This document shows positions 4,126 through 47,497 of a stretch of DNA of 47,497 bases, one piece after another. The stretch's first letter is position 1; each line of letters opens with the position of its first letter. The translations under genes were made by a program, and so were the position numbers. Source of the stretch: a virus (Duplodnaviria > Caudoviricetes); the IMG/VR virus record IMGVR_UViG_3300033519_000251, positions 1-47,497 of that record; one strand, written 5' to 3'. The notes beneath the pieces were generated by a model, which saw nothing but the letters and a program-made list of their open reading frames with translations, was not told where the DNA came from and made no database searches.

Positions 4126-4154
4126 AAAAGGGGCCTTTGGTCCCTCTTTTTTTT
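4126..4154 (+). terminator. Probable intrinsic terminator
   Basis: AAAAGGGGCC-TTT-GGTCCCTC followed by a T run. Confidence 0.65.
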
Positions 4155-4175
4155 AATCATTAAATTATGTTAATA

Positions 4176-4208: not shown

Positions 4209-4257
4209 CGTCATTAATTAAAGCTGGCGGCAACAGTTACAATACGGCATCAATAAA

Positions 4258-4593: not shown

Positions 4594-4903
4594 AGCCTAT
4601 TCAGTACGCTTACAAAGCCTGGTCAGTATATCTGACCGGGCTTTTAAGGCCATTGCCTTTGATGGATCGGAGGCAATAATACCAAAAAGCCAGGTTTTTG
4701 GGGATGATTTTGATGTGAAAAAGTCAGATGCTTACTGGATAAGTGCCTGGATACTTGAAAATAAAGAATTGCAGTATTCCGATAAAAAGCTTGCATGGTT
4801 TAATGAGCATGGCCGGATGCAGCCTACCTACCATATCGAAAAACATAAACCTGATCATATTAATCCTGTAAAATCGAACATCCATGAAGAGCTTGTACGC
4901 TGA
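4583..4903 (+). CDS. Hypothetical protein (start MKTKAY)
   Basis: Overlaps both neighbouring genes in the operon. Confidence 0.75.
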   Translation: MKTKAYSVRLQSLVSISDRAFKAIAFDGSEAIIPKSQVFGDDFDVKKSDAYWISAWILENKELQYSDKKLAWFNEHGRMQPTYHIEKHKPDHINPVKSNIHEELVR

Positions 4904-6104
4904 TCAACAGCAAGCCATCGGTAAACTCGGTGAGTTTAAAGTTGGCGCTTTGTTTATGGAGGCCGGAACCGGTAAGACCAGGCCAACATTGAACCTCGTG
5001 AACTCGGTTCCAGATGTTGACCTGGTTGTTTGGGTAGGTCCTTTGCGCTCGATACGTCCATTGAATGGGTTGCCATCTATTATTGATGAGATAAATAAAT
5101 GGGGTGGTTTCGTTTCTCCGGTAATCTATGCAGGCGTAGAAAGCCTGCAGAGTTCAGACAAACAGTATCTTGAGCTTTACAACCGGATAAATCAGGCATC
5201 GAAGCCATTTATTGTGGTTGACGAGAGCTTGAAGATAAAGAATTTTGATGCTAAACGAACTAAACGCCTGATTGCTCTTGGCGAAATGGCTGATTATAAA
5301 CTGATACTGAATGGCACACCAATTACCCGTAATTTGCTTGATTTGTGGAGCCAAATGGAATTTTTGTCGACAAAAATCCTGAACATGGGCATTGCCGAGT
5401 TTAAAAATACCTTTTGCGCCTATACCCGCGTGACTAAATTGATGGGTGGACACCGGCAATACACCCGTGAATTCATTACAGGATACGAAAACATTGATTA
5501 TCTGTATTCATTGATCCGGCATTACGTGTACGAATGTGATCTGAAACTGGAAATAAGCCAACTTTGGAATGTTTTGAATTACAAAATTGATGATGTGTCG
5601 AAGCAATTATACAACGAATTAAAGTCGAAATACCTTGATAATGAGGTTTTGAAGTGGAAAAATAATAATATTTTTCTTGAAATGACACAAAAGATGCAAC
5701 ATGTGTACTGCTGCACCGATGAAAAGTTTGAGTTGATTGAAAAGCATTTCAAAGAATTCCCGGAAGAAAAGCATATCATTTTTTGTAAGTATGTTGACAG
5801 CCGGGAGGCTTGTGAGAAACAATTTAAAAAGGCAACAGTCTTGAGCTATCAGAAAGAAAGCCTAAGCCTGAACCTTCAACATCTGCCATTTACCATTTTC
5901 TTTGATAAAAACTGGGATTACGCACTTAGGCACCAGGGCAGTCGAAGGAATTACCGAACAGGGCAGGAATACGACTGCCGGTATTGGGATTTAACCGGTG
6001 ATGTTGGACTTGAAAGCCTGATTGATAAAAATATCAGCAAAAAAACAAGCCAGGCAGAGTATTTTAAAGGCATCACAAAAAAGGAACTGGAGGAAGTGTT
6101 ATGA
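4884..6104 (+). CDS. SNF2-like SF2 helicase/ATPase
   Basis: Walker A MEAGTGKT, Walker B VVDES, LNGTP, DLWSQ, and motif VI-like QGSRRNYRTGQ. Confidence 0.88.
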   Translation: MKSLYADQQQAIGKLGEFKVGALFMEAGTGKTRPTLNLVNSVPDVDLVVWVGPLRSIRPLNGLPSIIDEINKWGGFVSPVIYAGVESLQSSDKQYLELYNRINQASKPFIVVDESLKIKNFDAKRTKRLIALGEMADYKLILNGTPITRNLLDLWSQMEFLSTKILNMGIAEFKNTFCAYTRVTKLMGGHRQYTREFITGYENIDYLYSLIRHYVYECDLKLEISQLWNVLNYKIDDVSKQLYNELKSKYLDNEVLKWKNNNIFLEMTQKMQHVYCCTDEKFELIEKHFKEFPEEKHIIFCKYVDSREACEKQFKKATVLSYQKESLSLNLQHLPFTIFFDKNWDYALRHQGSRRNYRTGQEYDCRYWDLTGDVGLESLIDKNISKKTSQAEYFKGITKKELEEVL

Positions 6105-7375
6105 ATGTTTATGAAGCTTCGCAAATGAGGTTGAAAACCTTGTTTGATGATTTTGATAATGTTTGTGTTTCGTTTTCGGGCGGTAAGGATAGCGGTGTGT
6201 TACTGAACCTTTGTATTGATTACATCAGAAAATATGAACCACATCGGATTTTATCAGTTTTCCATATGGATTATGAGGCACAGTATCAGATGACAACTGA
6301 TTATGTTAATAAAACATTGGCTGAAAATCAGGATATTCTCCATGTTTATCGCTGCTGCGTTCCGTTTAAAGTTACTACTTGTACTTCGATGCACCAGGAT
6401 CACTGGCGCCCTTGGGAACAATCGAAACGGAATATCTGGGTGAGTAAAATGCCTAACAACTGTTACACCAGAAAGTATTTTGACTTTTTCCATGATGATA
6501 TGTGGGATTATGAGTTCCAGGAGAAATTCAGCCTTTGGCTTCACAAGATTAAGCGCGCTAAACGAACAGCTTGCTTAGTTGGAATACGCACTCAGGAATC
6601 GCTTAACCGATGGAGAGCCATACACAGTGAAAGGAACTACAGGAACTATAATGGGTTGAAATGGACCAATGAAATGTTTCCGGATGTTTACAACGCCTAC
6701 CCGATTTATGACTGGCTTACAACCGATATCTGGACGGCAAATGGTAAGTTTGGTTGGACATACAACCGACTTTATGATTTGTATTACAAAGCAGGTGTTC
6801 CATTGGAAAAACAAAGGGTTGCAAGCCCGTTTCTTTCGGCTGCCCAGGATAGTTTGAAACTTTACCGGATTATTGAACCTCATACGTGGGGCAAGTTGAT
6901 CAGCCGGGTTAATGGTGTAAACTTTACCGGAATTTATGGCGGCACTACTACCATGGGCTGGCAATCTATAAAGCTCCCATCAGGGCATACATGGGAAAGT
7001 TACATGCACTTTCTGCTTAGTACGCTTCCCGATGATGCAAGAGCAAATTACTTAGATAAACTTTCGGTATCAATAAAATTCTGGAAAGAAAAGGGTGGCG
7101 TACTTTCGGATGAAACCATTCAGAAACTTAAAGCCTCCAGAGTAAAATTTGAGATCTCAAAAACTACCAATTACCAGACCTCAAAGCACCCGGTAAGGAT
7201 GGATTACATTGATGAGATTGATATTGCTGAAGCAAAAGAAATACCGACTTTCAAAAGGATGTGCATCTGCATTATGAAGAATGATCATTTATGCAAATAC
7301 ATGGGTTTTACCCAAACAAAAAATGAGATGGCAAGACGTAAAAATATTATGAAAAAATATAAAAACCTGTTATGA
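6101..7375 (+). CDS. ibrA: IbrA/YbdN-like PAPS-reductase-family (PP-loop, DUF3440) protein
   Basis: SFSGGKDSG PP-loop, VGIRTQESLNR, YPIYDW, QRVASPF, CIMKNDHLC. Confidence 0.88.
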   Translation: MNVYEASQMRLKTLFDDFDNVCVSFSGGKDSGVLLNLCIDYIRKYEPHRILSVFHMDYEAQYQMTTDYVNKTLAENQDILHVYRCCVPFKVTTCTSMHQDHWRPWEQSKRNIWVSKMPNNCYTRKYFDFFHDDMWDYEFQEKFSLWLHKIKRAKRTACLVGIRTQESLNRWRAIHSERNYRNYNGLKWTNEMFPDVYNAYPIYDWLTTDIWTANGKFGWTYNRLYDLYYKAGVPLEKQRVASPFLSAAQDSLKLYRIIEPHTWGKLISRVNGVNFTGIYGGTTTMGWQSIKLPSGHTWESYMHFLLSTLPDDARANYLDKLSVSIKFWKEKGGVLSDETIQKLKASRVKFEISKTTNYQTSKHPVRMDYIDEIDIAEAKEIPTFKRMCICIMKNDHLCKYMGFTQTKNEMARRKNIMKKYKNLL

Positions 7376-7887
7376 AAAGCCCTGTTTACAACGTAAAAGC
7401 CGTACCAATAGAGAAGGTACGGGCGAATAGTTATAACCCAAATGCCGTTGCTCCACCTGAGATGAAATTACTTGAGTTGTCGGTGTGGGAAGATGGCTAT
7501 ACCATGCCAGATGTTTGCTACTACTATCCCGACGAAGATATTTACGAAATTGTAGATGGATTTCACAGGTATTCATTAATGGATCCAGAATCGAAACATT
7601 TTTCAAAAAGGATTTATGATCGGGAAAATGGGCTGCTCCCGGTAGTTGTCATCGAAAAAGACACATCAAACCGGATGGCCAGTACCATCAGGCATAACCG
7701 TGCGCGTGGTAGCCATGATGTTGACTTGATGGTTAATATTGTAAGTGAACTTACAAAGTCGGGCATGAGTGATGCCTGGATAATGAAACATATTGGCATG
7801 GATGCCGACGAACTGCTAAGGCTAAAGCAGATTTCAGGATTAGCTGAGTTATTTAAAGATAAACTATTTAGTACATCATGGGAATAA
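7372..7887 (+). CDS. ibrB: IbrB/YbdM-like ParB-N domain protein
   Basis: ANSYNPNAVAPPEMKLL, IVDGFHRY, RMASTIRHNRARGSH. Confidence 0.9.
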   Translation: MKSPVYNVKAVPIEKVRANSYNPNAVAPPEMKLLELSVWEDGYTMPDVCYYYPDEDIYEIVDGFHRYSLMDPESKHFSKRIYDRENGLLPVVVIEKDTSNRMASTIRHNRARGSHDVDLMVNIVSELTKSGMSDAWIMKHIGMDADELLRLKQISGLAELFKDKLFSTSWE

Positions 7888-14041: not shown

Positions 14042-14484
14042 TAACGATAGCACAACTCGCAGCATTTGCTGCCCGCCTGAAAGATAACACCGATTTGAAT
14101 CATGTTATCCTGGTAACTACCGAATCGGAGCTTACAAAAAAATTGCAATCCGTAAAAGCCGAGCAGTTCCCGATACTTGTGGTTGTGATCCCGAGTTATG
14201 ACGCTACCGGAAGCCGCGACGGACTGAGCATGATGGCGCAGTTGATTATGTTTGTGCTTAAAAAAGACCGCGCCCAGGGAGCTACCGAAACAAACCAAAT
14301 GGCCGACATGGAAGAAACCCTGGCAATTACAAATAGTATTGCCGGTTTTCTGCTCAATGGCTTTGCAGATTACGAGGATTGTATTTTTTATCAGGGAATA
14401 CAACCCGCTTCGATACATATCGATCCTGAGTACAACTACCTTGGCTGCAGTGGCTGGAGCCTGGGTTTTCAAATTAAAAATTAA
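14038..14484 (+). CDS. Possible tail completion/terminator protein
   Basis: 148 aa; PILVV motif and C-terminal beta strand GWSLGF; position. Confidence 0.5.
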   Translation: MITIAQLAAFAARLKDNTDLNHVILVTTESELTKKLQSVKAEQFPILVVVIPSYDATGSRDGLSMMAQLIMFVLKKDRAQGATETNQMADMEETLAITNSIAGFLLNGFADYEDCIFYQGIQPASIHIDPEYNYLGCSGWSLGFQIKN

Positions 14485-28268: not shown

Positions 28269-29384
28269 TTAATACCCCTTAAATGTCTTCACAAACTTAT
28301 CGGATGCTTTTCGCCGGAATTCATTGATATACTGTTGCGTTTGATCGAGCGAGTAATGACGGTTCTGAAGCTGGATATCACGTGCGTTAAGATCCTGGTC
28401 GAAAGCCATACCGTTGCCGGTATGTTTCATGTCGTAAATGTTTTTTGTAAAGTTGTACTTCTTTTTAAAAAGTCGCCACCAGTCGCTGATCCGGTTCGGA
28501 CTAATCTTTTCGGGTCCAGGATTGAGCATTTTTCCAAACAGATACCAATCCGAAGGGTAATCGCGATTCCAATCTTTCAAATTTTCAAACAACTGATCGG
28601 GAATGACGATGGTTTCGGTTTTTCCGTTTTTACTTTTATTGCCAGGTACCAGGATCATTTGATTGTCCCACATCACATCTTTAAATTGCAATCTTACCAA
28701 TTCGGCTGGCCTCAGAAAACAATAAAAAATCAATTGTGAGATAACATACAACTGGTAGTTGTATGCCGGCAAGATGCCGGTAATGGTGGCCAGTTCCTCC
28801 GGGGTGTAGGCTGTAATGCCTGGTTCGTTTACCTTTATCAGTTTTATCCCTAAAATCGGGTTAAAATCAACATACTCCCGTTCGAGCAGCACATTAAACA
28901 GTGTCTTTAGCGAGCGCAGCCGGTTGTTGTGGGTCCGGTTTGATACTTTCTCGACGATTAAACAATCGTCGAGATATTTCTGAATGTGTTTACGGGAACA
29001 GTCTTTAACCGGCTTATCGTTAATTTCTTTTGTTTCCGCCCACTCCAAAAACAGTTTGGCAACCGAACGGTAGGTAAATGCGGTTCGCTTACCGGTTACT
29101 GATAGTTTGTAATCGACAGCAAAATCGAGGGCTTTTTGGAGAGAAACTCCAAGTGTGCGGGATGAGAAAGGATTAAAACCGGATAACAGCTTTCGCTTTA
29201 TCTCAGCTTTAATCTCATTTGCATGTGTGTACCGGGCAGTTTTTGTTTGGTACTTAGAGGAGATAAAAACCCTGAAGCGTTGAAATTTCCCGGTATCAGG
29301 ATTTTTGTAGTAGTAATACACAAACCATCTTTGGTTTAGGTCGGAATCGGCATCAAAAATTCGAGGTAACTTAAAATCATCCAT
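28269..29384 (-). CDS. int: Tyrosine integrase
   Basis: FLRPAEL (catalytic R), KSKN, YDMKHTG, QNRH, TQQY; adjacent attP. Confidence 0.93.
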   Translation of the reverse strand: MDDFKLPRIFDADSDLNQRWFVYYYYKNPDTGKFQRFRVFISSKYQTKTARYTHANEIKAEIKRKLLSGFNPFSSRTLGVSLQKALDFAVDYKLSVTGKRTAFTYRSVAKLFLEWAETKEINDKPVKDCSRKHIQKYLDDCLIVEKVSNRTHNNRLRSLKTLFNVLLEREYVDFNPILGIKLIKVNEPGITAYTPEELATITGILPAYNYQLYVISQLIFYCFLRPAELVRLQFKDVMWDNQMILVPGNKSKNGKTETIVIPDQLFENLKDWNRDYPSDWYLFGKMLNPGPEKISPNRISDWWRLFKKKYNFTKNIYDMKHTGNGMAFDQDLNARDIQLQNRHYSLDQTQQYINEFRRKASDKFVKTFKGY

Positions 29385-29404
29385 TTGGATATTTTTTTAA
29401 GATC

Positions 29405-29416
29405 CCGTCGCGGCAC
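29405..29416 (-). promoter_or_regulatory. GTGCCGCGACGG motif 20 nt upstream of the int start
   Basis: One of four copies (29405, 29657, 31792, and inverted at 39456). Confidence 0.65.
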
Positions 29417-29423
29417 TTAAATG

Positions 29424-29614
29424 TTTGTCGCTTTTGTCGCACGCGACAAACATTTTTTTATTCATTTGCTTGTATTACAAGCACTTAAATAGTACCCGGG
29501 GCGGGACTTGAAACACAATAATAACATTTAACTCCTTGTTTTTAACCTGTTTAGCTTTGTCGCTTTTTGTCTTTTTTAGCTGACGTAGACTGGTTTTGTC
29601 TCTTCTTTTGTCTC
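29424..29614. repeat. Probable integrase arm-type sites flanking the attP core
   Basis: TTTGTCGC at 29424, 29433, 29556; inverted at 29443; TTTGTCTY at 29566, 29595, 29607. Confidence 0.7.
29492..29512 (-). other. attP core: 3' end of a tRNA gene (probably tRNA-Leu)
   Basis: - strand TTCAAGTCCCGCCCCGGGTAC is a T-loop, T-stem and acceptor 3' strand; the rest of the tRNA is absent. Confidence 0.8.
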
Positions 29615-29718
29615 TAAAAAAAGCGAAGTGGGGATGGGAGGGAGTAAGAACACTTACCGTCGCGGCACGCTGTGATTTGTGGTTTAGCTTCCTTGAATGG
29701 ATCCCCATTCGCTGTATT

Positions 29719-30111
29719 TTAATGCTGCATCCGTGGCGTTTCGTAATTGCCGTTTTGAGTAGCCATTATCAAATCGTCGGAGCCGGGTTTTTTGGGCTCG
29801 TAGCGCTCCAGTTCCTTTTCGAGCCTGGCAATAAGTTTATCTTTATCCTTTAGCTGCGACCTTAATAACTCTATCTCCATTTTGCCATAATGCTGAATTG
29901 GCTCTTTTACTACATTTTCATTTTCTTCTTTCCACCAAAAGGCAGGCGAAACGCCTAAAGCCTTACTCATCTTTTCTAAATCAGAAACCCTACAATCATT
30001 CCTTTCAAAAAACTGATAAAGTACTTGTTTATCCCTTCCAAGAAGTTTTGCGAGTGATGGTACGCTAATTTTTTTTGACTCCGCGTATTTTTGTATCTTG
30101 TTGACTGTCAT
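29719..30111 (-). CDS. CI-like XRE repressor
   Basis: ISVPSLAKLLGRDKQVLYQFF...DLEKMSKALGVSPAFW plus C-terminal coiled coil; divergent from the early operon. Confidence 0.8.
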   Translation of the reverse strand: MTVNKIQKYAESKKISVPSLAKLLGRDKQVLYQFFERNDCRVSDLEKMSKALGVSPAFWWKEENENVVKEPIQHYGKMEIELLRSQLKDKDKLIARLEKELERYEPKKPGSDDLIMATQNGNYETPRMQH

Positions 30112-30242
30112 ATTGAATAATTTATAAAGAAATTAAATTATGTCTTTTTGAAATTATTTCTTGACTTTTATGGAATAATATTATTACTATTGTCGCTCAA
30201 AGTTAACATTCATTTTTGATAATAACAAAAAATATTCCAAAC

Positions 30243-30470
30243 ATGCTAAAAAGTGACATAATTAAAAAGATAAGGACAAATACCCGCTTAAAGCTGGAAA
30301 TTGCCCTCATGCTCGAACGTAGCATCCCCACAATTGAGCGGATGCTCAACAAAAACCACCTGATGCTTACCAGGATCGACGTGCTCAAAAAACTGGCTGC
30401 CGAACTGAATATCGAAAACTTTGAAGACCTGTTGGAAAAATCAGAAGCCTACTTTTCAAAATCAGCATAG
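30243..30470 (+). CDS. Cro-like HTH protein (start MLKSD)
   Basis: LEIALMLERSIPTIERML; first gene opposite the repressor. Confidence 0.65.
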   Translation: MLKSDIIKKIRTNTRLKLEIALMLERSIPTIERMLNKNHLMLTRIDVLKKLAAELNIENFEDLLEKSEAYFSKSA

Positions 30471-30472
30471 CC

Positions 30473-30829
30473 ATGAAAATCGAATTTTATAAGGACCATT
30501 CCGGCACCTTTAAGCCGGTGCTTTACTTCAAGTTTGAAGGGGCAAACTTCGAGGAGTTTGATAAACTTACCCCTGAAGAGATTGAAACCATTTTCGATCA
30601 CATCTGTAAATTTGATGAAGCCAAAAAAGCGCTACTGCATTTGAGCAGGTTTTTCCCAGGCAACAAAAAGCAAATACTGCTGCAGTTTATTTCGTGCAAC
30701 TGGCTCGAACTCGACGACATGGTTTATATTACCGATACCAGGTTAAACTATGAGTTTGTTCCATGCCCGCGCCGGTCGGCTGGAACATGCGAATTTGGTT
30801 GTAAAATATGTATGAAAAATCATTTTTAA
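30473..30829 (+). CDS. Cys-rich early protein
   Basis: FISCNW.ELD...YEFVPCPRR..GTCEFGCKIC. Confidence 0.7.
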   Translation: MKIEFYKDHSGTFKPVLYFKFEGANFEEFDKLTPEEIETIFDHICKFDEAKKALLHLSRFFPGNKKQILLQFISCNWLELDDMVYITDTRLNYEFVPCPRRSAGTCEFGCKICMKNHF

Positions 30830-30840
30830 ATCTTACAAAT

Positions 30841-31371
30841 ATGGACATCATAAAATTTACTTACAACAACAACGAAATCAGTTTTCAGCCCGACGCAGGC
30901 AAAAATCTGATGGTAAACGCTACCGAAATGGCTAAAGCTTTCGGTAAAGAAATTAAGCATTTTAATGAAAATGCAAGTACCGAATTTTTTATTAATGCAT
31001 GCTTGAATGGTCGGAATTCCGACTATTTAGGAGTAAAAAACCGCGAAGATTTGATCATTTCAAACCCAAAAACCGGCACCTGGATGCACAGGATTTTAGC
31101 GCTCAAATTTGCAGCCTGGATAAATTCAGAATTTGAAGTTTGGGTTTATTCGACCATCGAAGATTTAATCTTTGGGCAATACAAACGCCTCGAAGAAAGC
31201 CTTAAAGCCAGCGCAAAACGCAAAGTTCAGATTGAAGAACTCCGCAACAAGTTGGCCGAGAGCGAAGAATTTCAAACGCTCGAACGCCTCGAACTCGAAG
31301 AGCGCCAGGCAGCCTACCGCCGTAGCCGTGAAAACTCAGCACAATTGGAGCTTTTTAAAATTGAAGCGTAA
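30841..31371 (+). CDS. KilA-N domain DNA-binding/antirepressor-like protein
   Basis: VNATEMAKAFGK...GTWMHRILALKFAAWINSEFEVWV. Confidence 0.9.
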   Translation: MDIIKFTYNNNEISFQPDAGKNLMVNATEMAKAFGKEIKHFNENASTEFFINACLNGRNSDYLGVKNREDLIISNPKTGTWMHRILALKFAAWINSEFEVWVYSTIEDLIFGQYKRLEESLKASAKRKVQIEELRNKLAESEEFQTLERLELEERQAAYRRSRENSAQLELFKIEA

Positions 31372-31616
31372 TGATCAAGCCCATCACACTCCAAAGCATT
31401 ATCACTTTTCAGCAAAAGAAGCTGAAACAAGCAAAGCGCAACCAAAACGAAACGGTTGTGTATGCCGAAAAGATGATCCTTGAAATACTGTGCGAGCACG
31501 AGCGCATGATCCAGAACTTTGAAGGCAATGTAGTTTTACACATGTCGCCGGAGCGCTTTAAGCTTATCGAAAATATCAGGCCCACCGGGGTGACGTTGGA
31601 TGATCAGTCCGATTAG
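31371..31616 (+). CDS. Hypothetical protein
   Basis: 81 aa; TAATG overlap. Confidence 0.7.
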   Translation: MIKPITLQSIITFQQKKLKQAKRNQNETVVYAEKMILEILCEHERMIQNFEGNVVLHMSPERFKLIENIRPTGVTLDDQSD

Positions 31617-31880
31617 AACTCACCGATTTCTTAGTGAGTGATGGCCGTGTTCCCCGTTTTCCTTTTCGGGGCAAACCTGTCGGGCTGGGGTTCGTAAACA
31701 CCTAAACATAGCAGCTAAACACGGCAAAGAATGATGACAGGAAAAAACCTGTGACAGGAGGGAAAGACCCCGAAATAATATGAAGCTAAATCCGTCGCGG
31801 CACGACTGTAACAGCTTCCAGTTCTTTCGCACCATGGTTGGAATCACGCTTCAGGGCGTGATCTCCAGCTTGGTTTTTTT
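31617..31880 (+). ncRNA. Candidate structured regulatory RNA in the early operon
   Basis: ~260-nt gap without a plausible + ORF; several hairpins; carries CCGTCGCGGCAC at 31792-31803. Confidence 0.5.
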
Positions 31881-32098
31881 ATCACAATGAAAAAAATAAG
31901 GTACAAAACCGGACAAAGCAGCTACGCAAAAAGGATGATGCGACGTAACCTGATCATCGTTCACGCGCTGAAATTGATGGAAAAGGATTTGAGATAGAAA
32001 TTAAAAAGCCTTCCGCGTGGTAGCGAGCTACGAAGCTACTTTAAAGATGAAATTTCGATAACTCAAAATATTTTAGAACAATACAAAAACAGAATCTG

Positions 32099-32275
32099 AT
32101 GGAAACTATAAGAATCGCATTAAATGCATCAAGTGTAATGGTGCCGCTAATTGCAGCACTGTTGGTAGTAGGTTGGTTTGTTGATAAAGCAATAAACATC
32201 AGCAACCAAAACAAAAACATCTATCGCGATGCAGCCCGCGAACAGTGGCAGTCTGAAAAGAAAGAATCGCTATGA
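32099..32275 (+). CDS. 58-aa single-TM protein (absent from ORF track)
   Basis: METIRIALNASSVMVPLIAALLVVGWFVDK...KESL; ATGA overlap with the next gene. Confidence 0.6.
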   Translation: METIRIALNASSVMVPLIAALLVVGWFVDKAINISNQNKNIYRDAAREQWQSEKKESL

Positions 32276-32718
32276 TTTTCATGGTAGATAAATTTGAGAG
32301 TTGCCAGGTTACCGGAATCACCGATTTTGAACTTACCTGGAATGCCGGAAGAGGCGAATACAGCGAAAAGCTGTTCGATATCCAAATCGTACAAGCTGTT
32401 GATTATATTTTTTCGATAGCACGCGAAGCCATCCTGATCAGGCTTGAACTCTTTTTGAAAAAGGTTATTCCAATAACCGACCGCGCCGATGATGCAGCCT
32501 TTTTGTGGGGAAAACTTGCCGACTTAAACGCGAAGGATTTTAAACCCATTTGCCAGAACATCAACTTTTTAAAAGACCGCATTTACGCACTGATCCCCGG
32601 CAAAAAAACCGACATCGAAACCGCGCTTCACCGCGATGCAAACGACATTATCGCCTTCGCAAAATCGAACTGCGAAGCAAAATTTGAAAATTTTATTAAT
32701 CATTTAATAGCAGCTTAA
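32272..32718 (+). CDS. Hypothetical protein
   Basis: 148 aa in the early operon. Confidence 0.75.
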   Translation: MIFMVDKFESCQVTGITDFELTWNAGRGEYSEKLFDIQIVQAVDYIFSIAREAILIRLELFLKKVIPITDRADDAAFLWGKLADLNAKDFKPICQNINFLKDRIYALIPGKKTDIETALHRDANDIIAFAKSNCEAKFENFINHLIAA

Positions 32719-32720
32719 TT

Positions 32721-32987
32721 ATGAAAGAAAATTGTGATTGTTTAAAGAAGGTATCCGAGTTGGCCGTAAAGCATGTTACCGATACCAGTACACTAAAATC
32801 TTTTAAGGTTAAAGATTTTAGGTGGAAAAACTCCAGTATTTACCCAAAACAAAGAATTTACTCTGTTATCGAACTTAACTACACTTTCGAAAGAGTTGAT
32901 GGGAACGAGAGTAAGACTAAAAATGATTCGATAAGCATTTTTTATACGTACTGTCCTTTTTGTGGTTTGAAATATGAAAATGAGTAA
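32721..32987 (+). CDS. Small Zn-binding hypothetical protein
   Basis: CDC...YCPFCG. Confidence 0.75.
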   Translation: MKENCDCLKKVSELAVKHVTDTSTLKSFKVKDFRWKNSSIYPKQRIYSVIELNYTFERVDGNESKTKNDSISIFYTYCPFCGLKYENE

Positions 32988-33570
32988 TAATATGAAAACC
33001 CATCCAATAATTTTCAGCACCCCAATGGTGCAGGCCATCATCGAAGGCCGCAAAACAATGACCAGAAGAATCGTAAAAATGTATAGTAATGACGATCATC
33101 CCGCCAGACAAAATGCCACCTGGCTCAGTGAAAACAAAACATGCCCTTACGGTGAAGTTGGCGACGTGCTTTGGGTAAGGGAAAGTTTCACACCCGATTA
33201 CTTTGATAATCATCAGCCAGCCTATAAAGCTGATTGGACTAAATTATCTGCTGAATATGCTTTTGAACCAAAATGGAAACCCTCCATCCACATGCCAAAA
33301 GCCGCTGCCAGAATATTTCTCGAAGTTGTAAGTATCAGGGTTGAGCAGTTGCTTTCGATTTCATTTGAAGATGCTGAAAAAGAAGGAATACTTGGGCTAA
33401 ATTGCTGTAAAAGGTATTTTGATTATGTATCAAATAATTACACTAAACCAAATTCAATTTCTTCTTTTCGCAGCCTTTGGGTAAGCATTAATGGCAGAAA
33501 ATCATGGAACTCAAACCCCTGGGTTTATGTAATAGAATTTAAACGGATTGATAAACATGAAAACTTCTAA
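32974..33570 (+). CDS. ASCH/PUA-like phage protein
   Basis: IIFSTPMVQAIIEGRKTMTRR, GDVLWVRE, WKPSIHMPKAAARIFLEV, WNSNPWV; start may be 32992. Confidence 0.8.
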   Translation: MKMSNNMKTHPIIFSTPMVQAIIEGRKTMTRRIVKMYSNDDHPARQNATWLSENKTCPYGEVGDVLWVRESFTPDYFDNHQPAYKADWTKLSAEYAFEPKWKPSIHMPKAAARIFLEVVSIRVEQLLSISFEDAEKEGILGLNCCKRYFDYVSNNYTKPNSISSFRSLWVSINGRKSWNSNPWVYVIEFKRIDKHENF

Positions 33571-33572
33571 CC

Positions 33573-33821
33573 ATGCCACAACGTAAAATCAAATTAACAA
33601 CAGCACTCCCGGCACCATCCCAGGCTTTAAACCCGCCAAAAAAATCATATTGCATGTTTTGCGGCAACCAACTGCCACAGTGGAGCGAAGCGGTAAACTG
33701 TAGCGCAAAAGCGTGCCGCGAACAGCAGGAAGACCTGCGCAAAAAACGCAAATCGCTTGAATGGGATGGCGTTATCGAACCTGGTTATATTTTCCAGTGC
33801 ACCCAGGCATGTATCTTTTAA
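33573..33821 (+). CDS. Zn-finger hypothetical protein
   Basis: CMFCG...CSAKAC. Confidence 0.6.
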   Translation: MPQRKIKLTTALPAPSQALNPPKKSYCMFCGNQLPQWSEAVNCSAKACREQQEDLRKKRKSLEWDGVIEPGYIFQCTQACIF

Positions 33822-33845
33822 TAAACCTTTAAAAATATTTAATCT

Positions 33846-34106
33846 ATGAAGCCTCCAAAAAGAATTATCCAAATTGCTGAATTTGAAGCATCAGCAGAAT
33901 TTTACAATTTTGGGATACCGTTATCTATACTCAGGGATGATGTTACCAGGGCAATAAAGAATTATAGAGAAGCTAAACAAAAAATGATTGACTTTGAAAA
34001 CGAACAAAAGGAAATCAGACAATGGCTTGATAGTATTTACGATCAGTCTATAAATATTGATTCTGCCAACACTGAACACCAAACAACAAACAAAAAACAA
34101 TCTTAA
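33846..34106 (+). CDS. Hypothetical protein
   Basis: 86 aa in operon. Confidence 0.65.
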   Translation: MKPPKRIIQIAEFEASAEFYNFGIPLSILRDDVTRAIKNYREAKQKMIDFENEQKEIRQWLDSIYDQSINIDSANTEHQTTNKKQS

Positions 34107-34109
34107 CCT

Positions 34110-37100
34110 ATGATCAGTCCTGAAAAAAAACAGGAGGTTTTGCGTGTTGCACGTATCGAGGATGTTGTTGCAAAATACTACGATCTTAAAAAGTCGGGGG
34201 CTTCGCTTTATACTACCTGCCCAAAATGCGGCAAATCGGGTAAAGGAAAAGGCTTAATCGTTACCAAATCGAAACAGGTTTACAAATGCTTCTCATGCGA
34301 TTTTGCCGGAAACAACGCCATTACATTTGTGATGGAAACCCAGGCCATAGGTTTTATTGATGCTGTTAAACAGGTTGCCGAAATGTACAACATCAGTCTG
34401 GACGAACGCCCCGAACCCAAAGGACCGCAAAAGCGTGGTGGAAACCTGCCGGAGTCGTTCAGGAATATTCAGCTTAGGCAATCCGGTTTGGATGAGAACG
34501 ACCAGAAAGCCACCGTTTTTGTTGCCGACGATACCGAAAAGATTGTTGATACCATCGTTTCGGGTACCCGAAACGATTACGGAGTAATCACCGAAGATAC
34601 CGGTGACGACATGATTATCTGGTATTACGACCTGGAAGGAAAGCCGGTTGAGTTTTTGGCGCCAAAGCATAAAAAAACAGAACATCTGTGGCGGATCCGC
34701 TGGCAGAACCCCGACATCCATTGCGACAAGAGCGGAAACCCGATGAAGTACAGCAGCCCTTATGGTTCTGGCACACACCTTTACATTCCTGAAATATTGC
34801 GCAAGATGTACAAAGAAGGCCGCATTATCAAGCGGCTGTACATCCAGGAAGGCGAAAAGAAATCGATCAAAGCCTGCAAACACGGCATGCCGTCGGTTGG
34901 CATTATGGGCATCCATGCCCTTGGCAGCCATGGCCAGTTACCTTACGACATGCAATTGATTATAAAGCGTTACCAGGTAACCGAAATTATTTTTGTACTC
35001 GATGCCGATTGGGATGAACTTTCGCACTCCATCCAAACCGGATCGAAGGTGGACAGCCGCCCATGGTCGTTTTTTAATGCCGTAAAATCGTACAAAGAAT
35101 ACATCAAAGGACTGGTGAATGGTGGCTTTTATCTCGAAATTTATTTTGCACACATTAAAGCCAACGAAAAAAAGGACAAAGGCATTGATGACCTGCTGAC
35201 CAACACACTCAAAGGCAACGAACACGAGCTTTTTGAAGATTTTGAGAAAAGCATCAACCTGAAGGATGGCGCCGGAAAGTACATTGATCTGCACAAGATC
35301 ACCACCACGAGCGACGGCAAGCTGATGGAGCTTTGGTCGCTGCAATCGGCAGAATCGTTTGCCGAGCGTTACCGCGAGCAGCTTGAGGAAATCAAAGAAT
35401 TCAAGATCGGCAAGCACCTGTGGCGCTTCGGCGAAAACAAAAAGCTGGAGCTTGCACAGCCACTCCACGACGACGAAATATTCTGGAGCGTTGTAAATAA
35501 CCGCGACCGCTCTGGAAACGACAAGCAAACCATAACTTTCGATTATGAGAATGCTTACAATTTCCTGCGCAACCGTGGCTTTGGCCGCATAATGATGGCC
35601 AACGGGCAGTATTTCTTTTGCCACCTTGACGGCAAGATTGTGGAGATTGTTGAACCCTTCCAGGTTAAGGATTATGTGTTGGAAATTATGCAGGAAATCT
35701 GCCCCAAAGATGTGCGCAACATGCTTTACCGTGGTGGCAGGATGTACTTGGGTCCCGAAAGCCTGGGTTCGCTCCGTTACTTTATTCCGGAGTTTGCAAA
35801 AGCCAACCAGACCAGCCAGCGGCTGTTTTTTAAAAACAAATACTGGCAGATTTCGGCAGGTGGCATCGAAGAAAAAGCCATCACCAACCTGGATTATCAT
35901 GTTTGGCGCGACAAGATTATTGATTTTGACGCTACCAAACTGGCCGAACCCATTGTAAAGGTCGAAAAGCGCGACGGAAATTTTATCATCAAGTTTTCGA
36001 AAGACGGAGCCAACTGCCACTTTGCACGCTTCCTGTTCAACTCATCGGAGTTTAACTGGCGCAAGTTTATCAATCCCGAAACCCGCGAAAAGATTATGGA
36101 CGAGCGCACAGCCGAAGAGCGCTTCGAAACCAACATGCACTTTGTGAGCAAGATGACTGCCATCGGGTACCTGCTCCACAAATTCCGGGATAAATCCTGC
36201 GAAAAGGCAGTGATTGCCATGGATGGCAAGATAAGTGAAGTTGGCGAGAGCAACGGACGCACTGGTAAATCGCTCCTTGGCTTCGCCATCGGGCAGATGA
36301 TCCCGCAGAGCTACATCCCGGGCAAGAGTAAAAACCTTACCGAAGATCCGTTTATCTGGGAAGAAGTTACCGAGAAAACCGACAACGTATTCCTCGACGA
36401 CGTTCGCACCAACATCGACTTTGAATTCTTTTTCCCGATCATCACCGGGCGCATCACCATCAACGTAAAGGGCAAAAAGAAGTTTACCCTTACCGACGAA
36501 CAAACACCCAAGCTATTCCTAACAACGAACCACGCCATCAATGGCGATACTTCATCGTTCCGCGACCGGCAGGCGATTATTGTGTTTTCGGATTTTTACA
36601 ACGAAACCCACAAGCCGGTTGACGACTTTGGCACCAACTTCTTTGTTGAGTGGGACAAGATCCAGTGGAACCTGTTTTACAACTTCATGAGCGATTGCCT
36701 GCAGCTTTACTTTATGGCCCGCGACAATGGCTGGGGACAATCGGGATCGGGGCTGGTGCTTCCACCCATCGAGCGTATCGAGATGCGCCGTATGCGCCAG
36801 TTTATTGGCGAGGACTTCCTGAGCTGGGCAAACGAGTATTTTGGCATATCGGATTTCGATTCGCCAGAGGATTTAAAGCAGGTTAACAGCGCAAACCTGA
36901 ACGTACCCATCCCGCGCCAGGAACTGTTTAATAACTTCCTTGATAAAAACCCATTCCACCGCAAGCATACCACGGCATATCGCTTTAAAAAGAAGATTAC
37001 TACCTGGTGCAAGTTCCGTGGCTTGCTGTTTAACCCACTCAATTTCGACAACCAGGGCCGCCCCGGTGCCGACGACAAATCCGGCGGCGTAGAGAATTTA

Positions 37101-37124
37101 ACAATAAGTAATGGAAAGTATTGA
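34110..37124 (+). CDS. Primase-helicase (Zn-finger, TOPRIM and P-loop NTPase)
   Basis: CPKC...CFSC; IQEGEKK, VLDAD, KGIDD; Walker A NGRTGKS and Walker B VFLDD. Confidence 0.9.
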   Translation: MISPEKKQEVLRVARIEDVVAKYYDLKKSGASLYTTCPKCGKSGKGKGLIVTKSKQVYKCFSCDFAGNNAITFVMETQAIGFIDAVKQVAEMYNISLDERPEPKGPQKRGGNLPESFRNIQLRQSGLDENDQKATVFVADDTEKIVDTIVSGTRNDYGVITEDTGDDMIIWYYDLEGKPVEFLAPKHKKTEHLWRIRWQNPDIHCDKSGNPMKYSSPYGSGTHLYIPEILRKMYKEGRIIKRLYIQEGEKKSIKACKHGMPSVGIMGIHALGSHGQLPYDMQLIIKRYQVTEIIFVLDADWDELSHSIQTGSKVDSRPWSFFNAVKSYKEYIKGLVNGGFYLEIYFAHIKANEKKDKGIDDLLTNTLKGNEHELFEDFEKSINLKDGAGKYIDLHKITTTSDGKLMELWSLQSAESFAERYREQLEEIKEFKIGKHLWRFGENKKLELAQPLHDDEIFWSVVNNRDRSGNDKQTITFDYENAYNFLRNRGFGRIMMANGQYFFCHLDGKIVEIVEPFQVKDYVLEIMQEICPKDVRNMLYRGGRMYLGPESLGSLRYFIPEFAKANQTSQRLFFKNKYWQISAGGIEEKAITNLDYHVWRDKIIDFDATKLAEPIVKVEKRDGNFIIKFSKDGANCHFARFLFNSSEFNWRKFINPETREKIMDERTAEERFETNMHFVSKMTAIGYLLHKFRDKSCEKAVIAMDGKISEVGESNGRTGKSLLGFAIGQMIPQSYIPGKSKNLTEDPFIWEEVTEKTDNVFLDDVRTNIDFEFFFPIITGRITINVKGKKKFTLTDEQTPKLFLTTNHAINGDTSSFRDRQAIIVFSDFYNETHKPVDDFGTNFFVEWDKIQWNLFYNFMSDCLQLYFMARDNGWGQSGSGLVLPPIERIEMRRMRQFIGEDFLSWANEYFGISDFDSPEDLKQVNSANLNVPIPRQELFNNFLDKNPFHRKHTTAYRFKKKITTWCKFRGLLFNPLNFDNQGRPGADDKSGGVENLTISNGKY

Positions 37125-37146
37125 TGTTTAACTAAAAAACAAAAAC

Positions 37147-37359
37147 ATGATACCAGAAAAATTTTTAGAGAAATGCACGGGAGGCACATTGAATTTTAAA
37201 CATGCCCAGTATTTTACTGCAGACGATATGTTTTTTTTCGCCAACTCATACCACCAGCACGAACTAAACCACACCGACCCGCTACCGCCAAAGCGCGAAC
37301 TGCTTTCGCCGGGCAGCTACGAAAGAAAAAAAATGATTGAAAATGATTGGGATTATTAA
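37147..37359 (+). CDS. Hypothetical protein
   Basis: 70 aa with A-rich leader. Confidence 0.6.
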   Translation: MIPEKFLEKCTGGTLNFKHAQYFTADDMFFFANSYHQHELNHTDPLPPKRELLSPGSYERKKMIENDWDY

Positions 37360-37375
37360 AATTAAGGAGGATAAC

Positions 37376-37549
37376 ATGCCTAAAAAAACACCACAGCAAG
37401 AATTGGATGATATCGCAGGACAAATTATGAAAACCCTGATAGGATTTTGTATTAAAAAAAAGATCGAAAACCCATTATTACGTATTACTGCCGATGTTAA
37501 TGATGGCAGCAAGTATATGTTAATTTTTGAGCGGGTTGATTTGGAATAA
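37376..37549 (+). CDS. Hypothetical protein (start MPKKT)
   Basis: ATG at 37376, in frame with track ORF 37337. Confidence 0.55.
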   Translation: MPKKTPQQELDDIAGQIMKTLIGFCIKKKIENPLLRITADVNDGSKYMLIFERVDLE

Positions 37550-37575
37550 AATGTTTTACTAAAAAATAGAGAATA

Positions 37576-37845
37576 ATGGAACAATTTAATTTTGAAAAAA
37601 AACAAGCAAAGAAGTTGAAGAAACTTCGCCGGAAAATTGCACTCAAAGCAATGCAGGCACTTTTAAAGCAAAGCGTAACGAGTTGGAAAGATGGTGATAG
37701 TAATGCTGAGTATATGTCTGAACCGGTTTATCGTATGAAATTTATGGCTCGGGCTGACAGTGATTCTAAACACCTTATTAAAGATGCTTTTGAAATTGCC
37801 GATGAATTTATCAAACAGGAATCAGAAAAGGAGGCTACGAAATGA
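37576..37845 (+). CDS. Hypothetical phage protein
   Basis: IALKAMQALL...AFEIADEFI pattern that I recognise from small phage proteins. Confidence 0.75.
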   Translation: MEQFNFEKKQAKKLKKLRRKIALKAMQALLKQSVTSWKDGDSNAEYMSEPVYRMKFMARADSDSKHLIKDAFEIADEFIKQESEKEATK

Positions 37846-38105
37846 AAACCACAGTAACAGCAATCTTCCCGGGAGGAATTGGCGAAGTTGAAATAAGCCG
37901 TGAACGTGCAGATCAGATTTTGAGACTGCAAAAGATCATCAGGAAGCAAAGGGATAAAAATTCCATCGGGATAACATCTTTACCAAATAACCTTCCATTA
38001 GGAACAAAAATAAAATTACGCGATGGAGAGGTTTATCAGTATCAGGTAGAAAATAAAACTGGAAAAATTGATATTACAGATGCACCTAACTTAATAATAA
38101 TTTGA
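37842..38105 (+). CDS. Hypothetical protein
   Basis: ATGA overlap. Confidence 0.65.
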   Translation: MKTTVTAIFPGGIGEVEISRERADQILRLQKIIRKQRDKNSIGITSLPNNLPLGTKIKLRDGEVYQYQVENKTGKIDITDAPNLIII

Positions 38106-38106
38106 A

Positions 38107-38535
38107 ATGAAAATCACAATCGAACTCGAAACAATTGATGAATTAAGAGAGCTTATGGCAGTTAAGGTTAAAGAAGAACCTGGTACACCACTGGACCGTT
38201 TTTTACAGGAAATTGAAAGAGGTGAGCCGGTTCCTGGTCCATGGTCGGTTCCAACCGCAGAGCCTATTGCCGAAACAAGCGTAAAACCACGCAAGCCTCA
38301 AAAAAATGTAGGCGATATAATTTGCACGGTTTGCGGCAAACAATTCACCGGACGAATAGACAGTAAATATTGCTCAAGCAAATGCTATCATAAAGTTTAT
38401 GATAAAATGCGCAAACCCAAAAAAGCTATCGAAACCGATGATGCACGTTACCAGAATAACCTTGAGAAATGTAAAAAAGACATGAAGCAAACAGTAGCCA
38501 GGCCGGAGCATCATCACTTATCACATTCAGCGTAA
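38107..38535 (+). CDS. Zn-finger hypothetical protein
   Basis: CTVCGKQF...YCSSKC. Confidence 0.75.
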   Translation: MKITIELETIDELRELMAVKVKEEPGTPLDRFLQEIERGEPVPGPWSVPTAEPIAETSVKPRKPQKNVGDIICTVCGKQFTGRIDSKYCSSKCYHKVYDKMRKPKKAIETDDARYQNNLEKCKKDMKQTVARPEHHHLSHSA

Positions 38536-38550
38536 ACAGGAGGAAACAAA

Positions 38551-38799
38551 ATGAACATAGAACCATATCAAGTAACTCAATCATGGCGCACAACTACCTA
38601 TGATTGGAATACTAAAAAAATAAAATGTTACCCGGTTTTTTATGTAAAACAAACCGAAAAAGGAAGAACAAAACGAGTCTCATTAACTGAAGGGATTGAA
38701 CTAATCAAAAACAAATCGTGCGGGCTTACCGGCGATATGAAAGTGTGGATGATGGAAAATGGTTATGGTGAAGTTGTAAAGGAATTACTCTATTCATAA
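38551..38799 (+). CDS. Hypothetical protein
   Basis: 82 aa in operon. Confidence 0.65.
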   Translation: MNIEPYQVTQSWRTTTYDWNTKKIKCYPVFYVKQTEKGRTKRVSLTEGIELIKNKSCGLTGDMKVWMMENGYGEVVKELLYS

Positions 38800-38800
38800 T

Positions 38801-39049
38801 ATGGAAAATACCGTTCCCACACTTGTAGTAAGGCCAACTAATCGGGATAATGTAACAAAGATTTTTGAGAAAATGACCCCGATACGAAGACAAATCAATT
38901 TTGAAAATTACACCAAACTGATTGACGTAGAAGAAGGCCGGTTGGTTTCGAAGGTGCGCCCTAATGGTTGCTTTTTCTGCACGAATTTAAAATGGCCACG
39001 CTTTCGCGTGGCCATTTTTTTTTGCACTAATCTTTTCCAAATTTTATAA
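38801..39049 (+). CDS. Hypothetical protein (3' end uncertain, runs into repeats)
   Basis: 82 aa; C-terminus contains a duplicated FFCTNL. Confidence 0.45.
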   Translation: MENTVPTLVVRPTNRDNVTKIFEKMTPIRRQINFENYTKLIDVEEGRLVSKVRPNGCFFCTNLKWPRFRVAIFFCTNLFQIL

Positions 39050-39327
39050 ATGGCTGACATATAGTATATTATTATTTTTATTACCGCTTTATTATGAAAA
39101 TAGACTTATCAAAAATGCTGAAAAAATTCGTGCAACAGTGCGCACAAATATACTGTTCCACTATATGAGGCGGTTGGCGCGGCTTGTAGCCGACTGTTTT
39201 TCGTACTATTTTGCACGAATCCGTACTGTTTGCACGAATACCCGTTTTTGTACGGTTTTAAAAATGTTAATCTATTGATATTCACCGGGTATAAGTATTA
39301 AGCGCACTACTTGCACCCCTGCACGAA
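38978..39327. repeat. TGCACGAA iteron-like cluster (candidate replication origin)
   Basis: Direct copies at 38978, 39212, 39231, 39320; inverted at 39127; variant at 39023; AT-rich stretch ~39055-39125. Confidence 0.6.
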
Positions 39328-39444
39328 AATTTTGGTAGTTACAGACAAGTCTCCAGTGGCGTGCGTGTGTGTAAAAATCCACCCATATTTACCCTTCCTG
39401 CCGGTTTATTTATGTTTAATGAGACCGGATAAATTCAATTTTTT

Positions 39445-39466
39445 TATCTTTGCCTTGCCGCGACGG
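39445..39466 (+). promoter_or_regulatory. Consensus Bacteroidota -7 box followed by the TGCCGCGACGG motif
   Basis: TATCTTTG at 39445-39452; motif at 39456-39466, 20 nt before TTG 39487. Confidence 0.7.
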
Positions 39467-39486
39467 GAAATTAAAACGTTCCCGAA

Positions 39487-40029
39487 TTGCCATCACCCGT
39501 AACAGTTAAGCTCAAGATTAAGCCGTACCTCAAAAAATATCTTATCGGAAAAAGTATTAATAAAGAGGAACCTCTTTTGTTCGACCGTAAAGATGAGTTT
39601 GGCGATATTATTTTTAGCTGCCTTACAAATCACGATCAGCAGAAATTTCTTTCGATTAACGATAAGGAATTCGTTTATGCCTATTTTAATCAACGATGGC
39701 CAAGAGGTGAGTGGTGCGAAATCCAACTTCCATACAACCGGAATTTTAATGTGCTTTACAAAAACTATTTATCTGATCATAACAATCGGATAATAGTAGA
39801 TGAAATTACATCCCGTTTTTATCTCGAACTTAACAAGTACCTGGTTTTTAATATTGATAAAGGCGTACATCGAAAAGTTATTTTACATCATTTTTTAGGC
39901 CTTTACAATATTACCGAAGATGATGTGAATTTTGACAGCATTTACCGGCAATCTTCACGAATGTTGGAGTGCAAAATAAGAAAATTTTATTATTTATTTC
40001 GTCACATAAATGCCCAATTTGTCCTATGA
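39487..40029 (+). CDS. Hypothetical protein, candidate late-gene activator (TTG start)
   Basis: 180 aa with its own promoter, between the replication and head genes; function inferred only. Confidence 0.6.
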   Translation: MPSPVTVKLKIKPYLKKYLIGKSINKEEPLLFDRKDEFGDIIFSCLTNHDQQKFLSINDKEFVYAYFNQRWPRGEWCEIQLPYNRNFNVLYKNYLSDHNNRIIVDEITSRFYLELNKYLVFNIDKGVHRKVILHHFLGLYNITEDDVNFDSIYRQSSRMLECKIRKFYYLFRHINAQFVL

Positions 40030-46591: not shown

Positions 46592-47497
46592 TGAAGTAAA
46601 CGCCGAAATACGCTATGCTAACCTGGTAAAAATGACCATTGACCTGGTTAAACCAAAAAACCTGGTCTTTATCGGCGGGCGTGGTACAGCCAAATCAACT
46701 GATATTATTGCCGAACGTTCGATTGACATCTGCTATGATATGCCCAGGGCGCCTTTTGCCTTTGTGGCCGACACTTATGTTAACCTGATGTCGAATATTG
46801 TTCCCGCGATATTGCTTGGTTGGGAGCGCAAAAAGTGGTTCGAATATGATCAGTCTACCGGATTCGGTCATTATGTAGTTGACAAGCAGCCACCCGATCA
46901 CTGGCCAAAACCTTACATCAAAACCTTCGACTACAAACACACGATTTCAACCCACCTGGGTAATAAATTCTTTTTGATTTCGCTCGACAGAGCTTCCATC
47001 AGCGCGGGTATCTCGGTAGTTCATCATTTTATTGATGAGTGCAAATTTGCCCGTGAAGATCGTGTTAGCAGGCTATTCCCAACTTTGCGCGGTGATGCGC
47101 TTCTTTATGGCAACTCAAACTATTTTATGGGCCAGACTTTTTGCACCGACATGCCCAATCCAAACATGGGTGAGTATGATTGGATATTCAGGCTCGAAAA
47201 GAACATGAATAAAGAGCAGATTGTCAGAATTATTCAGACTTCACTTTTAGTGAATGAATTGAATATTACGCTGTACAATGCGCAGCAGTCGAATAATGAA
47301 AAGCTGATCAAAGCCACCAATTATCAACTACAACGATGGACTGCAAGGCTCAAGAAGATCCGCCAGGGATCTACTTTTTTTTATATTGTCAGTTCTTTTG
47401 CAAATGCTGATATCCTTACCTTAAATTATTTCAAGAACCTTTTTGAATCACTCGATTTTGAAGAGTTCAAATCTTCTGTACTTTCCATAAAAGCAAG
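46578..47497 (+). CDS. terL: Terminase large subunit, N-terminal ATPase half (absent from ORF track; runs off the end into 1..861)
   Basis: MLKIDEVNAEIRYANL...FIGGRGTAKS (Walker A)...VVHHFIDE (Walker B)...FCTDMP; ~566 aa when joined. Confidence 0.9.
   Translation, partial: MLKIDEVNAEIRYANLVKMTIDLVKPKNLVFIGGRGTAKSTDIIAERSIDICYDMPRAPFAFVADTYVNLMSNIVPAILLGWERKKWFEYDQSTGFGHYVVDKQPPDHWPKPYIKTFDYKHTISTHLGNKFFLISLDRASISAGISVVHHFIDECKFAREDRVSRLFPTLRGDALLYGNSNYFMGQTFCTDMPNPNMGEYDWIFRLEKNMNKEQIVRIIQTSLLVNELNITLYNAQQSNNEKLIKATNYQLQRWTARLKKIRQGSTFFYIVSSFANADILTLNYFKNLFESLDFEEFKSSVLSIKA

Follow-up and report, generated by a model that had tools for sequence, protein, structure and literature searches.

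A candidate early-operon RNA and its complementary boxes in the integrase and late leaders of a temperate Bacteroidota phage

The window analysed here is the entire record IMGVR_UViG_3300033519_000251, 47,497 nt long, and represents a circular temperate phage of Bacteroidota with genes for an integrase, a putative repressor, a KilA-N protein, a primase, an S49 protease and a tape measure protein. Within it, we describe a structured non-coding segment of the early operon, a candidate regulator RNA, together with short boxes complementary to it in the leader of the integrase gene (int), in the leader of the open reading frame at 39487 (ORF 39487) and 3' of the repressor gene. Named relatives of the phage are Bacteroidota prophages, and the closest reside in metagenome-assembled genomes of Lentimicrobiaceae. 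Relatives are referred to below by locus (e.g. L119). The features of the region are as follows.

28269..29384, minus strand: tyrosine integrase of 371 aa (Pfam PF00589, PF13495; PHROG 1), proposed target 1
29405..29416, minus strand: integrase-leader box GTGCCGCGACGG, 20 nt upstream of the ATG; box and spacing are the same in L119
29419..29455, no strand: inverted repeat within the int leader, made up of TTTGTC(GC) repeats and also present in L119
29492..29512, minus strand: attP core, identical to the 3' end of the tRNA-Leu(TAA) gene in the host of a relative (L328)
29615..29718, minus strand: repressor 3' RNA, candidate sponge; closing stem of 29701-29713 with 29622-29635 and a T run, from which the strand was deduced
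29719..30111, minus strand: putative repressor with a Cro/C1-type helix-turn-helix (HTH); weak match to Pfam HTH_26 (E 1e-3, below cut-off); PHROG 3/8/2439
30216..31616, plus strand: first four ORFs of the early operon, including KilA-N at 30808-31371, upstream of the RNA element
31617..31880, plus strand: structured non-coding segment of 264 nt, candidate regulator RNA, with an intrinsic terminator at 31838-31880
31782..31818, plus strand: seed hairpin, with the seed CCGTCGCGGCAC at 31792-31803 and the loop CGGCA at 31798-31802
34110..37124, plus strand: primase (CHC2 zinc finger), the marker used for gathering the phage family
39445..39452, plus strand: TATCTTTG, Bacteroidota -7 promoter box (consensus as given in parts of PMC7366714)
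39456..39466, plus strand: late-leader box, 20 nt upstream of the TTG
39487..40029, plus strand: conserved ORF of 180 aa with no known family, proposed target 2 and putative regulator, heading the virion-gene cluster

The 11-mer TGCCGCGACGG is present in four exact copies, at 29405-29415, 29657-29667 and 31792-31802 on the minus strand and at 39456-39466 on the plus strand. With up to one mismatch allowed, shuffled sequence contained 0.38 copies on average and none of 100 shuffles reached five, the number found in the window (four exact and one with a single mismatch). The placement of these copies agrees with the original prediction, to which four features can be added: the attP core, situated between int and the 29657 copy, the -7 promoter box ahead of the late copy, a second complementary box in the repressor 3' RNA and the terminator at the end of the early RNA. 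The int and ORF 39487 leaders share the exact 11-mer and the same 20-nt spacer, measured to the int ATG at 29384 and to the ORF 39487 TTG; a third sense copy lies 3' of the repressor; and the early-operon copy is antisense, reading CCGTCGCGGCA on the plus strand. Sense partial copies located in coding sequence, at 14212-14222 (plus strand, one mismatch) and 33713-33721 (plus strand, 9 nt exact), are probably due to chance. Scans of viral contigs for the exact motif disclosed 13 and 20 loci, only the close relative L001/L034 being related to the window, while additional matches in host genomes were no commoner than those of a reversed control. The same 11-mer was observed in an unrelated gut phage (L013, 797-819) after a -7-like box and 19 nt before the ATG of a short ORF, as a single copy in the part examined. 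A scan for sigma-70 promoters is not applicable to Bacteroidota.

Folding of the early RNA returned the hairpin GTCG-CGGCA-CGAC within a GAAGCT/AGCTTC stem as the predicted minimum free energy (MFE) structure, as had been proposed. Its CGGCA loop is predicted to be unpaired (P 0.99-1.0), and the terminator at 31838-31880 is predicted with P 0.94-0.99. The consensus fold across four relatives is comprised of 66 pairs, 16 of them with a two-sided change, and G-U pairs together with the U run favour the plus strand. The 5' two-thirds of the RNA (31645-31770) constitute a conserved domain of several stems, in which AAAGAATGA motifs recur (twice in L119). In a search against Rfam, no match in the window reached the gathering score, and four unrelated weak matches at E <= 5 were recorded in 29300-32100.

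To follow the boxes beyond the window, the phage family was gathered by primase alignment, 80 loci being taken from each of three collections. Phages whose primases are 46-56% identical lack the 11-mer and have the same layout with other sequences. Each int leader was scored against its own early strand by the best contiguous helix; a gapped duplex-energy score was dropped as too noisy (controls reached -30). At a threshold of <= -20 kcal/mol, set after inspecting the data, the int leader has an antisense partner in its own early region in 18 of 20 same-contig loci (a status inferred from coordinates for L314 and L316) and in 8 of 9 same-genome loci, compared with 0/20 and 2/9 in the opposite-strand control. 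The non-cognate background amounts to 48 off-site matches in 812 pairs (6%); a threshold of -15 is non-discriminating, being passed by 349 of these 812 pairs. The scored set includes 36 of 50 integrase loci. Left out were five with no leader or early region, or truncated ones (L291, L293, L295, L296, L297), five duplicates (L111, L292, L298, L303, L322), and four integrases judged to belong to another prophage or to be second integrases of a genome (L312, L323, L325, L326); of the last four only L323 matched, and counting them would bring the same-genome group to 9/13.

The seeds of the int link fall into 13 families and match exactly over 9-23 nt. For none of seven loci with a second type of integrase subfamily was an early antisense partner found in a region extending up to 7 kb upstream of the primase. 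Leaders of that subfamily (L090, L191, L299, L318-L321, including gut Bacteroides/Phocaeicola prophages) carry long U-tract/A-tract hairpins over the start region.

Among late leaders, 7 of 85 have an early antisense partner, against one in the same-strand control; their seeds are phage-specific, and pairing always falls at the predicted 5' end of the late message. In L046, L048, L055 and L212, a single terminator-ended RNA scaffold is combined with four different seeds, and every seed is complementary to the late leader of the same phage. A scan for this scaffold retrieved four viral contigs and a further scaffold scan one contig, all of them already among the loci gathered. One early RNA serving int and the late gene together, as originally envisaged, applies to the clade of the window and to L048, where a single box is used for both; L046 and L055 employ separate boxes, and most relatives have the int link only. 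The covariation check suggested with the original prediction was thus run across the family, and seeds and targets do covary, the opposite of the outcome named there as refuting. On these sequence comparisons, RNA-RNA pairing between the early RNA and the int and late leaders is very probable. It is favoured over a protein site because a protein would need a new specificity for each seed.

In two phages the early box and its flanks are duplicated before different early genes (L043 at 3960 and 4435; L150 at 1959, 2344 and 6070), which suggests cassette shuffling at leaders. Phage-encoded tRNA-Met genes were also observed in the early operon (L043 3349-3422, L128 3838-3910).

The close relative L119, with a primase 83% identical and non-coding DNA 68-77% identical to the window, has retained attP, the int spacer of 20 nt and each of the four sites. 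Its early hairpin and repressor 3' copy match over 17 nt, with an extension different from that of the 13-nt match in the window. The late spacer ranges from 19 to 22 nt in relatives. In L036, L116 and L118 the late box has a G-U compatible change, and the TGCCGCG core facing the loop is constant in the late boxes of L036 and L116-L119. L001 (3900-4960) shows neither attP nor an int leader beyond the repressor 3' RNA; only duplicated 3' fragments of the integrase gene are present, which may point to decay or rearrangement of this prophage.

We have also addressed the question of what pairing would do to the start region. The 3' end of the duplex falls at -14..-22 in 25 of 27 int leaders (-20 in both leaders of the window), and the duplex never covers -13..+3 or the start codon in int leaders. 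In the predicted fold of most int leaders, the A-rich start region is hidden by a U/G-rich 5' arm; the early box extends over this arm and the loop. Binding changed the mean opening energy of -15..+3 in int leaders from 9.0 to 5.6 kcal/mol, with values lowered in 21 of 26 and raised in three; an equal block at other placements gave a mean of 7.9 kcal/mol, as opposed to 5.6 at the box. The start region is freed in 4 of 11 late leaders, namely L048 (7.1 to 1.9 kcal/mol), L055 (10.2 to 2.1), L212 (8.4 to 3.3) and L224 (7.9 to 2.2), and cognate key-leader pairs bind best. Structure of the start region, or translation initiation region, tunes translation in Bacteroidetes, according to parts of PMC6847099. 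The claim that pairing opens inhibitory stems is supported at the level of the family, but it is weak in the window, and the particular stems named in the original prediction were not supported. We lean, by a modest degree, towards activation of int and late-gene translation as the most likely outcome, the case for it being weakest in the window's own folding.

On the integrase side, 29492-29512 is identical to the 3' end of a host tRNA-Leu gene and therefore represents an intact attP; int would follow the host tRNA after integration. A co-oriented tRNA or tmRNA gene stands directly upstream in 15 of 25 integrase loci, and several others begin at a contig end. The MFE structure of the int leader is a longer hairpin reaching codons 1-8, whereas the GGAT/ATCC stem of the original prediction is absent both from it and from L119 and was rejected as a conserved element. 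Seven TTTGTC(GC) repeats flank the attP core (29424-29612), two of them forming the inverted repeat of the int leader; they are kept in L119 and are likely integrase arm-type sites. Folding of the circular (attP) form, in the window (29405-29512, minus strand) as in L119 (2110-2216), predicts that the int-leader box itself pairs with the 3' fragment of the tRNA, which could make int control differ between the infecting and the integrated state.

In the late leader, the box starts 3 nt after TATCTTTG and is therefore the predicted 5' end of the late message. A -7 box lies within 70 nt of the start in 52 of 85 ORF 39487 homologues, and in alignment the Met starts of the homologues P0003 and P0004 coincide with the TTG of ORF 39487. 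The proposed CGGGAA/TTCCCG stem is present in the MFE structure of the window but is lost in L036, L116, L118 and L119, and hence not conserved. Relatives of ORF 39487 comprise 105 representatives at 50% clustering, and an S49 head protease is encoded no more than 2.5 kb downstream of the homologue in 54 of 85 loci. No Pfam family was found across 85 members, nor any sequence match in the PDB, and Atlas neighbours are hypothetical proteins; the broad alignment of the ORF offered no segment suitable for a protein-pattern search. The predicted model has a pLDDT of 93.6, and its best fold match (Z 5.2) involves only residues 112-180. Known phage late activators for comparison are Mu C/Mor, P2 Ogr and lambda Q. 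A late-activator role for ORF 39487 is suggested by position, not by family or fold, and the ORF may be no more than the gene that opens the late operon. Elsewhere among virion genes, the region 2912-7887 holds an ArdC-like anti-restriction gene, a SNF2 helicase gene, a PAPS-reductase/DUF3440 gene and ParB-like genes. The record begins and ends (1-80 and 47418-47497) with an 80-nt sequence repeated in direct orientation apart from several mismatches, which fits a circular genome whose assembly drew on near-identical strains.

The repressor 3' RNA has in its loop a box at 29657-29669 and a second box at 29683-29692, both complementary to the early hairpin. This copy has the longest complementarity to the early hairpin (-44.8 kcal/mol) and was seen only in the clade of the window; L001 and L119 share the layout, although the stem of L119 differs in sequence. 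An alignment fold of the three sequences was uninformative owing to misalignment. A plus-strand promoter for the 29657 copy (TAGCTTTG at 29552) was considered and rejected, as it is kept neither in L001 nor in L119. Judging from its position and complementarity, the repressor 3' RNA may be a sponge for the early RNA. The prophage RNA AgvB is a sponge of small RNAs, complementary to the seed of a regulator; the segment 29615-29718 differs from that type in being the 3' untranslated region (UTR) of a phage repressor, limited to this clade, and its cognate specificity finds no support in co-folding.

These features can be combined into a mechanism. In the lysogen, read-through from the tRNA gene would supply the int message and a consensus promoter of its own the late message, both being made but folded shut. 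Once the early operon is derepressed, the hairpin 31782-31818 would act in trans as an RNA key on both leaders: the exposed CGGCA loop would nucleate pairing, and the duplex would take the 5' arm of the inhibitory hairpin and leave -13..+3 free for Bacteroidota ribosomes, which are expected to depend on an unstructured start region. The terminator-closed repressor 3' RNA, in the clade that has it, would bind the key through its two boxes and soak up leaky copies, thus setting an induction threshold. The whole construction would amount to a family-wide set of natural orthogonal toehold switches, in which an early key licenses int translation from a constitutive tRNA-driven message and at least 13 interchangeable seed codes insulate co-resident prophages; in the window one key would gate both int and the late operon, with the repressor 3' UTR sponge providing an all-RNA threshold. 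In this complete form it is offered tentatively, as a possibility somewhat short of an even chance.

Several observations weigh against pairing and opening as described. Of the 85 late leaders, 78 have no early partner; a mismatch that cannot pair is present in the late box of both L117 and L119, and L001 carries one seed change without a match in its repressor 3' copy. The count of internal transitions, which at 8 to 0 for G-U compatible changes speaks in favour of RNA pairing, is biased because pairs were selected with G-U allowed. A control block in the coding region lowered the opening energy almost equally (mean 6.8 vs 5.9), and the Wilcoxon p of 6e-4 overstates significance because the 26 leaders are related. 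In the window, the opening energy of int goes from 7.1 to 6.2 kcal/mol, or from 7.1 to 7.5 with a longer leader, and that of the late leader from 4.8 to 4.4 kcal/mol; in five clade relatives the change is only -0.3 to +0.4, and in L046 the late leader rises from 10.2 to 10.8 on binding. Co-folding of the sponge reveals no cognate preference (window cognate -16.5, non-cognate -16.9, L119 cognate -3.3). Expression data add a weak hint only. In a search of RNA libraries, seven runs contained 5-7% of the words searched for. In one freshwater metatranscriptome study, contigs derived from relatives of 90-99% identity span 31586-31829, 31588-31821 and 31156-31807, as well as 29131-29512, 29650-29741 and 39525-39675; the runs were picked because they contain this stretch, the contigs are unstranded and DNA may be present. 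Wastewater run X1, probably DNA, was left out.

The same pairing could also act in the opposite direction: as antisense RNAs of the lysogen, the leader of int, the 5' end of the late message and the repressor 3' RNA would shut down the early operon, either through premature termination or by masking an early start region, as P4 CI does. All three partner RNAs could be made in the lysogen, the repressor 3' copy has the longest complementarity of all, and one duplex could do both jobs. In equilibrium folding, binding switches a short terminator hairpin from P 0.00 to 0.99-1.00 in L048, L055 and L212, the element of L212 lies directly before the primase, and in most phages with the int link only the early box is within 16 nt of an early ATG. 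However, the alternative long stem in the L048 clade also has a U run after it, and in the clade of the window the terminator forms at P 0.94-0.99 with or without bound seed and no attenuator was found by folding. The position of the box is moreover fixed with respect to the int start codon and not to an early gene, the genes following it belonging to several unrelated families or being absent. We regard the reversed direction as rather unlikely. It is less probable still, and in our view improbable, that pairing of the early RNA serves to repress or destabilise the int and late leaders and so keeps integrase and late genes low early in lytic growth, an outcome like that of lambda aQ or OOP RNA. 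The leaders of the window are barely opened, 3 of 26 int leaders become less accessible, and the duplex at -32..-20 borders the -20..+20 low-structure zone described in parts of PMC6847099. Against repression stand the free -13..+3 interval and the invasion of the 5' arm of inhibitory stems in most relatives; extra repression would be redundant because the leaders are already folded shut (mean 9 kcal/mol).

Explanations without any RNA pairing fit the data poorly. The alternative named in the original prediction, a DNA- or RNA-binding site of a phage protein, could account for the near-identity of the copies in DNA, for the position of one of them at a predicted transcription start and for the pair on either side of attP, and the motif shares GTCGC with the arm-type repeats. 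It is disfavoured by covarying seeds of constant polarity: 13 unrelated seeds of 9-23 nt remain antisense on the early strand and sense in the leaders, the RNA scaffold stays constant around seeds that vary, and G-U compatible changes dominate. We consider it very improbable. Relics of local duplication or gene conversion with no current function would explain why long perfect matches resemble copies, and the duplicated early boxes of L043 and L150 are in line with such events. Even among phages whose primases are only 46-56% identical to that of the window, however, the matches keep to a fixed interval ahead of the start codon, and the sites are kept in L119 despite diverged flanks, which leaves this the most remote of the explanations considered.

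Resemblance to known systems is greatest for RNAs that expose a start site. In engineered toehold switches and crRNA/taRNA riboregulators, a toehold or loop and invasion of a hairpin arm free the start, in orthogonal cognate pairs; the system predicted here differs in being natural, phage-borne and independent of the Shine-Dalgarno (SD) sequence. By analogy, it would work most like IsrK and lambda PreS, and pairing upstream of the start without covering it, a feature of that type, is found in the leaders of the window and of the family. According to parts of PMC4825925, IsrK of the Salmonella prophage Gifsy-1 pairs in trans with an inactive phage message, makes the start site accessible and is linked to induction, but acts on its own read-through transcript, via orf45, AnrP and AntQ. 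Unlike IsrK, the window has the unlinked int and late leaders as partners, phage-specific seeds and a host phylum without SD pairing. Lambda PreS/LPR1, as presented in parts of bioRxiv 10.1101/2024.10.31.621285, pairs upstream of a start codon, exposes it and raises translation; its target is the host dnaN, found through Hfq RIL-seq, whereas the targets in the window are phage genes. Parts of PMC7366714 report no obvious Hfq homologue in Bacteroides.

The comparison with C4 and CI RNAs, which came with the original prediction, holds for pairing but misfits the outcome, because C4 and CI RNAs repress and activation is predicted here. C4 RNA has two complementary boxes per target, is matured by RNase P and differs in its seeds between P1 and P7; the early RNA of the window has two boxes only against the repressor 3' RNA. 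Shared with P4 CI and P1/P7 C4, as far as parts of PMC4825925, PMC8201110 and PMC2864571 describe them, are short complementary boxes, a structured RNA and control of lysis-lysogeny. CI represses by termination, with targets on its own transcript, and C4 represses antirepressor synthesis (both from parts of these sources). C4 (RF01695) controls synthesis of the antirepressor (ant) (parts of PMC8201110); in the window, complementary sites precede int and ORF 39487 and follow the repressor on its 3' side, and none stands before the KilA-N gene. The CI targets seqA and seqC flank the RNA on its own transcript (parts of PMC4825925), while around 31792 no complementary copy was found on the plus strand, the partners being on other transcripts. 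The early RNA is not a member of C4 or CI.

A full-text literature search yielded no account of such a system, with most subscription papers and supplements, e.g. the motif tables of PMC2864571, outside its scope, and the terms "integrase" and "Bacteroid" are absent from a 2025 review of phage small RNAs (PMC12197685). If true, the proposed control would give a testable answer to how int stays silent behind a strong host tRNA promoter and is yet produced at induction, without a CII-like protein. It would also add an RNA-pairing layer to lysis-lysogeny in a phylum where phage regulation is barely described, with no SD pairing and no obvious Hfq, and the natural orthogonal key-lock pairs would make a parts list for translational switches in Bacteroidota.

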